Source: Octopus vulgaris (lineage: Eukaryota). From it: 64,000 nt of DNA. The notes under the pieces are model-generated. The model was not told where the DNA came from and ran no database searches. It worked only from the letters and a program-made list of their open reading frames with translations. Position 1 is the first letter of the stretch. Each line of letters opens with the position of its first letter. The position numbers were made by a program, and so were the translations under genes. The DNA is taken from assembly GCA_951406725.2 (NCBI GenBank), contig OX597822.1, forward strand, positions 53,754,001 to 53,818,000, in the 5' to 3' direction. Below are positions 33,997 to 60,249 of the stretch, in pieces.

Positions 33997-34033
<37 letters not shown>

Positions 34034-34396
34034 GTTCTATTTTTACCTCCACAAAGGATTCAATGAATTTAGAAATGAAGAACTCTGAAATTATGACGCT
34101 TCTAGTCATCTCTAGTGGTCACCTTGGAATAATACAAAAATTGATTTCACATGTAGCAAACATAAATGCAGACAACAATAATGGTAACTTTTTCAATTAT
34201 ATATATATATGCTCTATTTTTACCTCCACAAAGGATTCAATGAATTTAGAAATCAAGAACTCTGAAAATATGACACTATTGCTTCTAGTCGTCTCCGGGG
34301 GTTACTTTGGAATACTACAGAAACTGATTTCACATGGAGCAAACATATATGCAGACAAAAATAATGGTAACTTTTTCAATTATATATATATGTGTA

Positions 34397-35326
34397 TCAT
34401 CATCATCATCGTCGTTTAACGTCCGTTCTCCATGCTAGCATGGGTTGGACGGTTCGACCGGGGTTCTGGGAAGCCAGAAGGCTGCACCAGGCTCCAGTCT
34501 AATCTGGCAATGTTTCTACAGCTGGATGCCCTTCCTAACGCCAACCACTCCGTGAGTGTAGTGGGTGCTTTTTACGTGCCACCTGCACAGGTGCCAGGCG
34601 GGGCTGGCAACGGCCACGGTCAGATTGGTGTATTTTATGTGCCACCGGCACGGAAGCCAGTCGAGGCGGTGCTGGCATCGGCCACGAGTCGGATAGTGCT
34701 TTTTACGTACCACCAGACCAGGGATCCTGGCTGGTTCAATTCGATTTCGCTTGCCCCAACATGTCTTCACAAGCAAAGGGGGTTGGCAAGGGTGCCTGTC
34801 GTACGGTCGCATTGGAGTATTTTACGTGCAACGGCCACGCGAGTCGGATAGTGCTTTTTACGTACCACCAGACCAGGGATCCTGGCTGGTTCAATTCGAT
34901 TTCGATTTCGCTTGCCCCAACATGTCTTCACAAGCAAAGGGGGTTGGCATGGGTGCCTGTCGTACGGTCGCATTGGAGTATTTTACGTGCCACGGCCACG
35001 AGTCGGATAGTGCTTTTTACGTACCACCAGGCCAGGGATCCTGGCTGGTTCAATTCGGTTTCGATTTCGCTTGCCCCAACATGTCTTCGCAAGCATGGGG
35101 GGTTGGCATGGGTGTCTGTCGTCGGATGAGGTTCTATATCGACTTCGCTTGCCTCAACCGGTCTTTGTGTCCAAGGGAGGAAAGGCATTCATAAGTGGGC
35201 TGGGCTCACTTGTCCTGCCTGGTCTTCTCACGTACAGAATATTTCCAAAGGTCTCGGTCTCTGGTTATTTCCTCAGTGAGGCCTAAAGTTCGAAGGTCGT
35301 GCTTCACCACCTCGTCCCAGGTTTTC

Positions 35327-55539: not shown

Positions 55540-57432
55540 CCGTATTTGACGGCATATAGGACGCACTTTTTTCCAAAAAATTTGACTCAAAAAAATCGCC
55601 CTGCGTCTAATATGCGAAGTCAAGACCCTCCTGTAGGCTAATCTTCTCCCAGACGCTCACTAACCTAGCTTACGATAAGTATTTCTACCTACGCTAACGC
55701 CTTAATGATATTTTCCGTACTCATGCATCATTATTTTATTGCTAATATTATTACTTTAAAATACGAATTATCGTAAAAATCAAAGCAATCTACCGTAAAT
55801 TGTTAGGCTGCGATCCATGGCACACGTTTACTAATATCAGCTGATTGGAACCCTAACTCAATGCCATCTGACGGTGAGGAGTAAAACTACGGAATGCACA
55901 TGATCGTTGCGAGTTCGTGTATAAACGGAGGTAGGTTGGATATCTTGGTACAACAAAGTTTATGATCATAACAAAACACACTATAACAGTACAAGCACCC
56001 TCACGGCTATGGCAGCAAAAAGATCAAGCTACAAAATCTCCTACAAACTATGAGTGGTAGATTATGCCAAGGAGCATGGAAATAGAGCAGCAGCAAGGGT
56101 TTTTGGGCCACCACCTACAGAAAAAATGATAAGTGTCTGGCAACAGCAAGAAGAGCAGCTGATGAGAGCACAGAAAGGTAAACATAACCTTCGTTGCCCA
56201 GCCCCACATTGGCAAGAACTTGGGGATGATATAAAAACGTGGGTGCTTGATGAGAGAAACTCAGGGAGAAGTGTATCTACCAAAATGATAATTCATGAGG
56301 CCATGAGAGTAGCATAACAACGAGGGATACAGAACTTTGCAGGAACAGAAGATTGGTGTTACAGGTTTATGAAACGGAAGGGTTTATCAATGCGTACAAA
56401 AACATCCATTGCACAAAAAATGCCTGCTGATTATGAAGAAAAATATTAGATTTTCATAGATTTGTTATAAATGCAAGAAAGAAAACTTGTTTTGAACTGG
56501 GCCATAGGGAATATGGACGAAGTTCCACTCACATTTGATGTACAATCCAACAGGACTGTGAGTGTCAAAGGGTCTAAAACGGTTTCGATAAAAACCACTG
56601 GCCACGAAAAGACCCACTATACAGTAGCTCTGGCGTGTTGTGCTGATGGCATAAAAATGCCACTTCTCTGGATATTTAAGAGAAAAACTCAGCCTAAGGA
56701 TAAAATTCCAAGAGGTGTACTAGTTCATGTTCATAAAAAAGGCTGGATGGACGAAAATGGAATGAAACAGTAGTTACAAAATATATGGTCAAGGCGTCCT
56801 GGTGGACTATTAAGAAAACCTTCTCTTCTGGTTTGGGATCAGTTTAGAGCACACAGAACTGAAACCATTAAAAAAAGGGTGGGAGAATTGAAAACGCAGT
56901 TAGCTGTCATTCCTGGTGGACTGACGAGCCAATTGCAGCCTTTAGATGTGTCTGTGAATAAGCAGAACATGCGTGAACATTGGAACAAGTGGATGGCAGA
57001 GCCACATTATGTCCTCACTACCACAGGAAGAATGAAGCGGCCCACCATTGCTGAAGTGTGTGAGGGGGTGAAGAAATCTTGGGATGATGTTAGGCCTGAA
57101 ATCATTGTGAAGGCTTTTAAGAAGTGTGGCATTAGCAATGCCCTTGATGGCACAGAAGATGATCCATTATTTCAAGACAGTGATTTCAGCAGTAGTGATG
57201 AAGATGTTCCTTGTTTTGAAGATGATGAAGAGTTTTCTGGTTAAAAAGATGATTACTATTGTAATTTGTATGCTTTCCTTTTGTATGCTTGCTTTTATAC
57301 AGCAATGTTTTCTGCTTTTGTAATGTGCTGCTAGACTGCTTTCAACAATATATGCTTAAATACACTTAAAACTTTTTTTTCTGAATTTGACCTGCTGAAA
57401 TGAGGGTGCGCCTAATATGCCGTCAAATACGG
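55540..57432 (+). mobile_element. Full-length but inactivated pogo-family (POGK-like) DNA transposon
   Basis: TIRs ccgtatttgacggcata / tatgccgtcaaatacgg with TA TSD (55538-39, 57433-34). Transposase ~56009-57244 with GNMDEVP, TTGHEKTHYTV, LVWDQFRAH, IPGGLTSQLQPLDVSVNK; several stops and frameshifts. Confidence 0.93.
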
Positions 57433-60249
57433 TAAATTGGACAGTTCAAGAGTAAGTCCCCATTGGATCTGGAATATCCAAACCTGTTTCTTTTAGGTTT
57501 CAGTTAGGTACTATTACATAACTATAAAGTTACCAGTAAAGCTAACGTATAAAGGTATAATTTTTTACCACCCACTCGTCTTTCAGACACTGTTTTTAAT
57601 GCTTTTATTCTTTTCTTTTTCAGGTAAATGCTGGAGATAATCATGGTAGCATACCTTTACACAATGCCTGTTTCAGTGGAAACTTGCACATAGTTGAGCT
57701 GTTGTTAAGTCATTTTGGCATTGATGCCAATGTGGTGGTCAACAATGGTGATACACCACTAAATTGGACAGTTCAAGACTAAGTCTCCATTGGATTAGAA
57801 ATATCCAAACCAGCTTCTTTTAGGTTTTCAATTGGATAATATTAGATAACTATAAAGGTTACCAATAAAAATAACGTAAAAAGGTATAATTTTTCACCAC
57901 CTCACTCATCTTTCAGACAACATTTTTAATATTTTTATCTTTTTCAGGTGAATACACAAAATAACTATGGTAGCATACCTTTACACGTTGCCTGTTTCAG
58001 TGGAAACTCGCACATAGTTGACATGTTGTTAAGTCATTTTGGCATTGATGCCAATGTGGTGGTCAACAATGGTTATACACAACTAAATTGGACAGTTCAA
58101 GAGTAAGTCCCCATTGGATCTAAAATATCCAAACATGTTTCTTGTAGGTTTTCAATTTGATAATGTTAGATAACTATAAAGGTTACCAATAAAAATAATG
58201 TATAAAGGTATAATTTTTCACCACCCCACTCAGCTTTCAGACACCATTTTTAATATTTTTATTCTTTTCTTTTTCAGGTGAATGCTGTGGATAGTTATGG
58301 TAGCATACCTTTACACAATGCCTGTGTCAGTGAAAACACGCACATAGTTGGCCTGTTGTTAGATAACTTTGGCATTGATGCCAATGTGGTAGTCAAGAAT
58401 GGTGAGACACATCCACATTTAACAGTCCAAGAGTAAGTCCCCATTGGATCTGAAATATCCAAACCTGTTTCTTTAAGGTTTTCAGTTAGGTAATATTAGA
58501 TAACTATAAAGGTTACCAATAATGAAAACATATAAAGGTATAATTTTTCACCACCCCACTCATCTTTCAAGCACCATTTTTTTCTTTTTCAGGTGAATGC
58601 ACAAAATAACTATGGTAGCATACCTTTACACGTTGCCTATTTCAGTGGAAACTTGCACATAGTTGACATATTGTTAAGTCATTCTGGCATTGATGCCTAT
58701 GTGGTGGTCAACAATTGTGATACACCACTAAATTGGACAGTTCAAGAGTAAGTCCCCATTGGATCTGAAATATCCAAACCTGTTTCTTTTAGGTTTTCAA
58801 TTGGATAATATTAGATAACTATAAAGGTTACCAATAAAAATAACATATAAAGATATAATTATTCACCACCCCACACATCTTTCAGACAATATTTTTAATG
58901 TTTTTATCTTTTTCAGGTAAAAACTATGATAGCATACCTTTACACAATGCCTGTTTCAGTGGAAACTTGCACATAGTCGAAATATTGTTAAGTCATTCTG
59001 GCATTGATGCCTATGTGGTGGTCAACAATTGTGATACACCACTAAATTGGACAGTTCAAGAGTAAGTCCCCATTGGATCTGAAATATCCAAACCTGTTTC
59101 TTTTAGGTTTTCAATTGGATAATATTAGATAACTATAAAGGTTACCAATAAAAATAACATATAAAGATATAATTATTCACCACCCCACACATCTTTCAGA
59201 CAATATTTTTAATGTTTTTATCTTTTTCAGGTAAAAACTATGATAACATACCTTTACACAATGCCTGTTTCAGTGGAAACTTGCACACAGTCGAAATATT
59301 GTTAAGTCATTCTGGCATTGATGCCTATGTGGTGGTCAACAATTGTGATACACCACTAAATTGGACAGTTCAAGAGTAAGTCCCCATTGGATCTGAAATA
59401 TCCAAACCTGTTTCTTTTAGGTTTCAAATTGGATAATATTAGATAACTATAAATGTTACCAATAAAAATAACATATAAAGGTATAATTATTCACCACCCC
59501 ACACAGCTTTCAGACACCATTTTTAATATTTTTATTCTTTTTTTTCAGGTCAATGCTGTAAAAATTATGGTAGCATACCTTTACACAATGTCTGTTTCAG
59601 TGAAAACACGCACACAGTTGGCCTGTTGTTAAGTAACTTCTGGCATTGATGCCTATGTGGTGGTCAAGAATGGTGAGACACATCCACATTTAACAGTTCA
59701 AGAGTAAGTCCCCATTGGATCTGAAATATCCAAACCTGTTTCTTTTAGGTTTTCAAATGGATAATATTAGATAACTATAAATGTTACCAATAAAGATAAC
59801 GTATAAAGGTATAATTTTTTCACCACCCCACTCAGCTTTCAAACACCATTTTTTTCTTTTTCAGGTGAATGCACAAAATAACTATGCTAGCATACCTTCA
59901 CATAATGCCTGTTTCAGTGAAAATACGCACATAGTTGGCCTGTTGTTAGATAACTTTGGCATTGATGCCAATGTGGTAGTCAACAATGGTGAGACACATC
60001 CACATTTAACAGTCCAAGAGTAAGTCCCCATTGGATCTGAAATATCCAAACCTGTTTCTTTTAGGTTTTCAGTAAGGTAATATTAGATAACTATAAATGT
60101 TACCAATAAAGATAACCTATAAAGGTTTAATTTTTCACCACCCCACTCATCTTTCAGACACCATTTTTCATCTGGAATATCCAAACCTGTTTCTTTTATG
60201 TTTTCAATTAAGTAACATTAGACAACTATGAAGGTTGGTTATTCTTGTT

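Follow-up and report, generated by a model that had tools for sequence, protein, structure and literature searches.

Two tandem arrays of frame-asymmetric ankyrin exons in Octopus vulgaris, possibly orphaned from an ankyrin-RING-death-domain family

A stretch of 64,000 nucleotides (nt) of Octopus vulgaris DNA, hereafter the window (GCA_951406725.2, contig OX597822.1, positions 53,754,001 to 53,818,000 of the forward strand), contains two adjacent tandem arrays of ankyrin exons. An initial annotation made from the sequence alone had described about 34 copies of one exon (array A) and about 23 of another (array B), all on the plus strand, and had proposed a combinatorial locus in which one exon of each array is used per transcript, as in insect Dscam1. 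In this study, 34 and 23 copies were found, and their sequences mark them as copies of two ankyrin exons of an Octopus-expanded family of ankyrin-RING-death-domain proteins. The reading favoured here, with moderate confidence, is that the arrays are orphaned, non-coding pseudo-exons, and that the exons took patches from related genes by gene conversion.

The two arrays and their copies

Array copies were located by BLAST with one unit per array, and the B acceptors by anchored extraction. The arrays and two features within them are listed here by position in the window; lengths of proteins are in amino acids (aa).

34027..44652, plus strand: array A, made up of 34 ankyrin exons (133 nt, phase 0>1) and a 26-nt stub
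48863..60236, plus strand: array B, made up of 23 ankyrin exons (155 nt, phase 0>2) in units of 313-330 nt
50888..51042, plus strand: B06, the sole splice-intact B copy with both TPLH ankyrin motifs
37522..38865, plus strand: read-through frame over 177-nt A units, intron stubs included, a 447-aa open frame

The exon of array A is 133 nt long in 27 of 34 copies, and is followed by GT in 32 copies and by GC in the other two. Its acceptor is a weak AAG, in register in 25/34 copies. The possibility that this acceptor is eroded coding sequence was considered and rejected; exon-skipping gene models place the true border there. The introns measure 44 nt (33 nt in two), each unit bringing stubs of about 15 nt on the donor side and about 25 nt on the acceptor side that meet in a (TA)n tract. 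In all, 20 A copies are intact (18 with GT, 2 with GC; 17 distinct peptides) and 14 are damaged. The exon corresponds to the family's ankyrin segment that comes after a small 12-residue exon; it matches the Pfam ankyrin models weakly (E 0.04-0.09) and the hidden Markov model (HMM) of the family segment clearly (60.6 bits, E 2e-17).

Array B consists of 22 copies with an acceptor and one headless copy at 50568, separated by introns of 160-175 nt. Among its 20 complete copies, 13 have an exon of 155 nt and only 11 keep the donor GT; the usual GT donor reported by the initial annotation therefore holds for array A, but in array B for about half of the copies only. Seven of the 23 copies are intact (exon starts 50888, 53786, 55080, 57948, 58278, 58593 and 59865). 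The remaining 16 show nine dead donors, seven length changes (four copies have both), two interrupted exons (B05 and B14) and the one missing head. B06 is a clear match to the Pfam ankyrin models (E 8e-11).

Because the exons are frame-asymmetric, neither the A nor the B copies can be chained. Entry in the wrong phase meets stops in 32-34 of 34 A copies and in 18-20 of the 20 complete B copies, as expected from the frameshift that had been predicted for consecutive copies. One A unit spans 133+44 = 177 nt, which is 59 codons without a stop. The Octopus sinensis RefSeq model XP_029641291.1 (214 aa, annotated 'putative ankyrin repeat protein RF_0381') is a read-through of four nearly identical A units; it is not encoded whole by the window and is likely the annotation of unspliced repeat units.

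The arrays are not an assembly artefact, since contigs of independent public runs cross junctions between the B array and transposons with 0-1 mismatches and the O. sinensis model has the same A units. The contigs studied come from four of 24 listed public runs over 48700-60300 (array B only), three of the four being guessed to be RNA; 20 listed runs cover part of the B region, and none is on record as RNA, which says nothing either way about expression. Locus-specific contigs join arrays and transposons unspliced, for example at 55510-57462 (one mismatch) and, over the B06 acceptor, at 50780-51022. Fifteen joints are listed out of 28, all of them from the DNA run, and not one has GT..AG ends. 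Of 380 loose ends, the 24 listed all lie away from B splice sites; contigs of this kind drop minor forms. Small runs (43-134 million letters of contigs) with locus-specific contigs cover the whole B region, old transposons included. If these runs are RNA, a status that is guessed, the B region is transcribed unspliced. Loose ends at 59115 and 50769 lead from the B donor side into another form, a T-rich acceptor-like stretch, which would be the parent's intron of about 80 nt before the small exon.

The parent family and the surroundings of the arrays

The closest named proteins to array B are Octopus 'MIB2-like' proteins (61-66% identity), and the array peptides share 45-69% protein identity with the sampled paralogues. 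Members of the family include XP_036355810.1, XP_014768682.2 and CAJ1099281.1 ('E3 ubiquitin-protein ligase MIB2-like'). In a search with one family protein, Octopus names stand on 76 of 120 rows among the matches listed (isoforms included); family proteins are auto-named MIB1/MIB2-like or RF_0381. In Pfam they show ankyrin repeats together with a C3HC4 RING, and many have a Death domain as well. Mind bomb (MIB1/MIB2) E3 ligases carry N-terminal Mib-Herc2/ZZ and REP domains; Pfam scans of five relatives and the precomputed domain lists of the Octopus rows contained no Mind bomb N-terminal domain. The Mind-bomb-like parentage first suggested is right in that the closest proteins are 'MIB2-like', an auto-named family that is mislabelled and is not true Mind bomb. 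Eight ankyrin columns of the family are hypervariable, with 10-12 different residues per column among 57 rows, and these sequences make the ankyrin-RING-(Death) family a candidate set of variable intracellular receptors. A search of the open-access literature found nothing on the family or the arrays; subscription papers and supplements were outside its scope, and genome-paper supplements could mention the family.

The borders and phases of exons A and B, as first annotated, match those of the family (exon-skipping gene models; 12 RefSeq isoforms of one gene). The family order is B, the 12-residue small exon, A and then further exons, and the window order, A before B, is the reverse. With segment HMMs and position-specific scoring matrices, no family exon other than A and B was found in the 64 kb, no family exon between the arrays, and no RING or Death exon; the window holds no complete family gene. 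The absence of a constant linking exon, which the initial annotation had listed as a caveat, is thereby confirmed for the whole window. The small exon is short, and its best window score (12.2, close to the family minimum of 11.8) falls on the minus strand within a retroelement. Parent-type intron flanks, known from the loose ends in public contigs, are likewise absent from the window. If the alternate B flank is read as the parent's intron before the small exon, the duplication breakpoint would lie inside that intron.

Several observations concern the intact genes. They contain tandem linker exons of 17 and 26 residues that are skipped in many combinations (XP_036355496-XP_036355507 and another gene). 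Within the first set, a single residue separates isoforms X1 and X2, M or V at the start of exon B, a hint of two alternative B exons in that gene; no alternative ankyrin exons were seen among the isoforms of two further family loci. Some members, such as XP_036370063.1, have several near-identical internal ankyrin repeats of 34 residues, and chainable ankyrin units have therefore also been amplified inside genes. Periods of 44 and 52 in two family proteins were considered as duplications of A or B and rejected, as they are not A/B.

The arrays lie among transposons and other repeats, of which the following touch them directly.

34398..35328, plus strand: dispersed-repeat (short interspersed element-like) insertion between A02 and A03
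44700..46700 (ends approximate), plus strand: decayed piece of a Helitron, cutting short the last A stub (45003-45398 matches Pfam Helitron_like_N, E 1e-12)
47713..48529, plus strand: Penelope-like retroelement remnant between the arrays (tblastn with the open reading frame 30755-31882, E 5e-46)
51055..53010, plus strand: retroelement-like insertion inside array B, its 3' part matching Penelope-like open reading frames
55545..57432, plus strand: pogo-type DDE transposon with terminal inverted repeats, at TA inside exon copy B14 (Pfam DDE_1 E 3e-15)

The insertion between A02 and A03 contains a 159-nt internal tandem repeat of 2.8 copies (34675-35122). A shorter dispersed-repeat insertion (36005-36170) separates the look-alike copies A05 and A06, which suggests a block duplication. 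Elsewhere, a Penelope-like element with two long open frames occupies 29760-31882 on the minus strand (GIY-YIG E 6e-4), with older relatives at 47713-48529, 52276-52793, 60311-60710 and 63234-63335. A decayed retroelement without long terminal repeats (non-LTR) lies just past array B (60800-63030, RVT_1 E 3e-5), and a tRNA-Ser(GCT) gene lies at 10025-10106 on the minus strand.

Variation among the copies and its explanation

The DNA statistics left out the interrupted copies B05 and B14, the headless copy, B06, whose downstream intron has been replaced, and A28/A29, whose acceptor stub is deleted; identical rows were collapsed, and 19 B and 31 A rows were used. The ratio of nonsynonymous to synonymous change (dN/dS, omega) is 0.74 in array B (p 0.085 against 1) and 0.67 in array A (p 0.044). 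The initial annotation had proposed that a ratio near 1, together with equal divergence of exons and introns, would point to an exon-derived satellite or pseudogene. The ratio is indeed barely below 1, but the exons are far more diverse than the introns (A, 0.142 vs 0.055; B, 0.187 vs 0.098; about 2-2.5x). Variants shared by three or more copies are denser in exons, whether synonymous sites (odds ratio 3.8, p 2e-6) or nonsynonymous sites (odds ratio 2.3, p 3e-4) are compared with introns. Singleton variants show no significant difference (nonsynonymous vs synonymous, odds ratio 0.81; synonymous vs intron, 1.18). A difference in mutation rate is argued against, because the exon excess is found only in shared variants and not in singletons. 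Intron distance plateaus while the proportion of synonymous differences (pS) reaches 0.37.

In array B, a free two-point fit placed the change points at +8 of the acceptor and +1 of the donor, that is, at the exon borders, with a step rather than a gradient; in array A they fell at +44 and -19, giving a variable zone in mid-exon. None of 1050 position-blind simulations reached the B contrast (intron hot spots lie outside these simulations). The arrays are not a plain satellite. In a polarised test, 15 of 34 derived shared B residues occur in at least two paralogues, against 6.9 expected (p 0.0002), and rare B residues do so in 5 of 37 cases, against 7.3; the signal is robust to dropping near-copies or the B01 type. 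An unstratified version of the test was not significant (p 0.15-0.17). Variability per column correlates with that of the family in array B (rho 0.32, p 0.02) and not significantly in array A (0.18). Variants in the arrays concentrate in the second helix, away from the hypervariable columns; at each of those columns the arrays show 2-5 different residues and the family 10-12. The family-type B variants sit on a background that has already lost invariant residues.

Several results indicate decay. Dead donors and shifted acceptors recur across subtypes, and the donor G is itself a shared variable site. All A copies lack P15 (present in 49/49 family rows) and A19 (46/49), having L at the former and V or G at the latter. 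Of 22 residues that are invariant in the family, B07-B22 retain 15-20; in 54 of 57 family rows the number is 20-22. Being splice-intact brings B copies no higher score on the family HMM (67.4 bits, against 72.6 for damaged copies; n=7 vs 11, p 0.53). The copies are mosaics: incompatibility between sites rises with distance, and 0 of 1000 permutations were as low. Against 49-57 family rows, each array forms one clade or is not rejected as one (44-51 columns, low power). The array-majority private residues (F17, F31, I10, T49, V39 and S9 in B; L15 and V19 in A) occur in at most one of 57 and 49 family rows, respectively. Docking/selector RNA pairing is a feature of Dscam-type clusters; between the consensus introns and the window, the longest perfect helices were 16 and 13 nt, and shuffled sequences gave 15.2 and 12.9. 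Decay, near-neutral omega and the lack of docking pairing beyond shuffles speak against A and B as a functioning combinatorial pair. The combinatorial locus first proposed is further at odds with the reversed exon order, the lack of a constant exon in the 64 kb and a diversity that lies off the family's hypervariable columns.

Two processes are aware of exons, namely selection on the protein and homology-limited exchange with paralogues. Exchange into degraded copies is favoured here, because the family-type variants lie on backgrounds without invariant residues or working donors, and off the hypervariable columns. Under the favoured reading of orphaned pseudo-exons, unequal crossover inside the flanking introns (at TA tracts in A; about 55-60 nt past the donor in B) would have made and amplified exon-plus-stub units. 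As frame-asymmetric units, these could not be chained; whatever else the parent gene or genes contained would have been lost or separated by transposons. The copies recombined with each other, as their mosaic pattern shows. The exons, still homologous to many paralogues, may then have gained older family-type variants while the introns stayed uniform, and new mutations would now gather about neutrally.

Some results weigh against this reading. Shared variants have a nonsynonymous/synonymous ratio of 0.6 (p 0.04) and include 0 of 24 possible stop codons, as protein-level selection on the copies would also give. Splice-intact A copies outscore damaged ones on the family HMM (55.1 vs 49.8, p 0.03), a difference that is partly trivial. 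Family sharing is weak in array A (12/30 vs 8.1 expected, p 0.06; thinned, 12/39 vs 10.3), and P15 and A19 have been restored in no A copy. The import of patches from paralogues is inferred from protein sequences; as the sampled paralogues are 45-69% identical and the arrays clade-like, the conversion donors would have to be closer, unsampled relatives. Array B ends 3.8 kb from the window end, within transposons, and constant exons may follow. The coverage of the whole B region by small runs guessed to be RNA would also fit an intron of an active gene.

The principal rival, tentative but to be taken seriously, is that array B, and perhaps array A as part of a separate neighbouring gene, is a past or present cluster of mutually exclusive exons, with the last B, the small exon and the 3' exons beyond base 64000. 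Selection would have kept the exons distinct, conversion would have homogenised the introns, and part of the cluster would since have decayed. Steric and frame rules for mutually exclusive splicing, with a 50-nt limit, are set out in a passage of PMC5740500, and the 44-nt A introns put donor and branch point below that limit. The same-phase, non-chainable copies, of which 7 B and 20 A are intact, agree with such a cluster, as do the exon-limited diversity, the ratio of 0.6, the family-type residues, the combinatorial use of tandem linker exons in the 12 RefSeq isoforms and the M/V isoform hint. However, the 48.8 kb before B contain no upstream family exon and the 34 kb before A no small exon, although contigs of 14-67 kb carry annotated family proteins. 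Only one intact B copy has both TPLH motifs, intact B copies are not better proteins, and the variable donor G, the position of the diversity and the lack of a docking element above shuffles all speak against it. An ordinary exon-derived minisatellite, evolving neutrally and with its exon/intron contrast due to intron-focused recombination, is improbable. The near-neutral omega and singletons and the head-to-tail units under concerted evolution agree with it, and the mid-exon variable zone of array A is compatible with homogenisation spreading from the TA tract, so that it fits A better than B; the step at the B exon borders, the simulations and the family-shared residues remain unexplained by it.

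Silent donor systems such as chicken pseudo-V, lamprey VLR and Borrelia vls form arrays of incomplete coding cassettes and trade sequence with related genes. By analogy, the arrays might be a silent library from which expressed family genes receive stretches of ankyrin sequence through gene conversion. This would need neither splice sites nor constant exons, and would agree with exon-limited, family-shared variation with few stops and with a family that is hypervariable at ankyrin surface columns. It is nevertheless very unlikely: the residues private to the array majority are nearly absent from the sampled family proteins, so that nothing at the protein level suggests outward flow, no expression site is seen here, and array diversity is poor at the hypervariable columns. 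Least probable of all is that array A is a single-exon gene for a tandem-repeat protein of 59-residue units reading through the former intron. The 447-aa open frame and the O. sinensis RefSeq model are in its favour, but the frame is kept by only 3 of 19 spacings other than 177 nt, and no similar protein was found in 8000 scored candidates or in the best 150 of a representative search. The O. sinensis model gives no evidence of conservation, as it is nearly identical to the window.

Significance and comparison with known systems

With 57 copies, the tandem amplification of these two exons, neither of which can be chained, is unusually large. The exon-aware signature of the copies is not reproduced by neutral repeat turnover, and they may offer a natural case of spare exons exchanging sequence with a gene family. 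The arrays also bring out a large Octopus ankyrin-RING-death family whose ankyrin surfaces are hypervariable and whose linker exons are used combinatorially. We consider it doubtful, though worth stating, that this family amounts to a system of variable receptors inside the cell, supplied from stores of spare ankyrin exons that serve either as mutually exclusive alternatives, in a gene reaching past the window, or as gene-conversion templates. If spliced or template use were true, it would be a testable diversification mechanism for cephalopod immunity or self-recognition, and the first Dscam- or cassette-like diversifier in a cephalopod.

According to a passage of PMC3364881, Dscam1 has clusters of 12, 48 and 33 variants, arranged in gene order among 20 constant exons, and a mollusc appears to lack Dscam-hv. 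As described there for arthropod Dscam1 (Dscam-hv), the Octopus arrays consist of tandem, same-phase binding-module exons of similar length, and 34 and 23 copies are within the Dscam range. Joint inclusion is blocked here by frame and by the 44-nt A introns. Unlike Dscam1 as portrayed in that passage, the arrays have a reversed order, no constant exon in the window, many dead copies and a cytosolic ankyrin domain. The variants of a Dscam-type cluster would be mostly intact and under purifying selection; here 20/34 and 7/23 are intact, omega is 0.67 and 0.74, and invariant residues have been lost.

The nearest parallels are brown-algal genes and spidroins. The brown-algal ROCO and NB-ARC-TPR genes, as presented in parts of PMC3341825 and PMC11378527, are also candidate receptors with fast birth and death; their repeat domains are encoded by exons, pseudogenes are numerous, and introns harbour spare exons, some intact and some inactivated. 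They differ in that their exons are symmetric, 72 nt long and chaining, with positive selection at binding sites; the Octopus exons are asymmetric, lie outside any visible gene, and have their diversity off the hypervariable columns. The spidroin gene MaSp2, in a partial account drawn from PMC9779670, resembles the arrays in its tandem exon-intron units, highly uniform introns and gene conversion, but MaSp2 exons chain into one expressed protein, which A and B cannot do. Compared with the Octopus ankyrin-RING-death genes themselves, the window holds no more than two of the exons, and their motifs are eroded. The arrays are a real and odd case of tandem exon duplication, probably non-coding.

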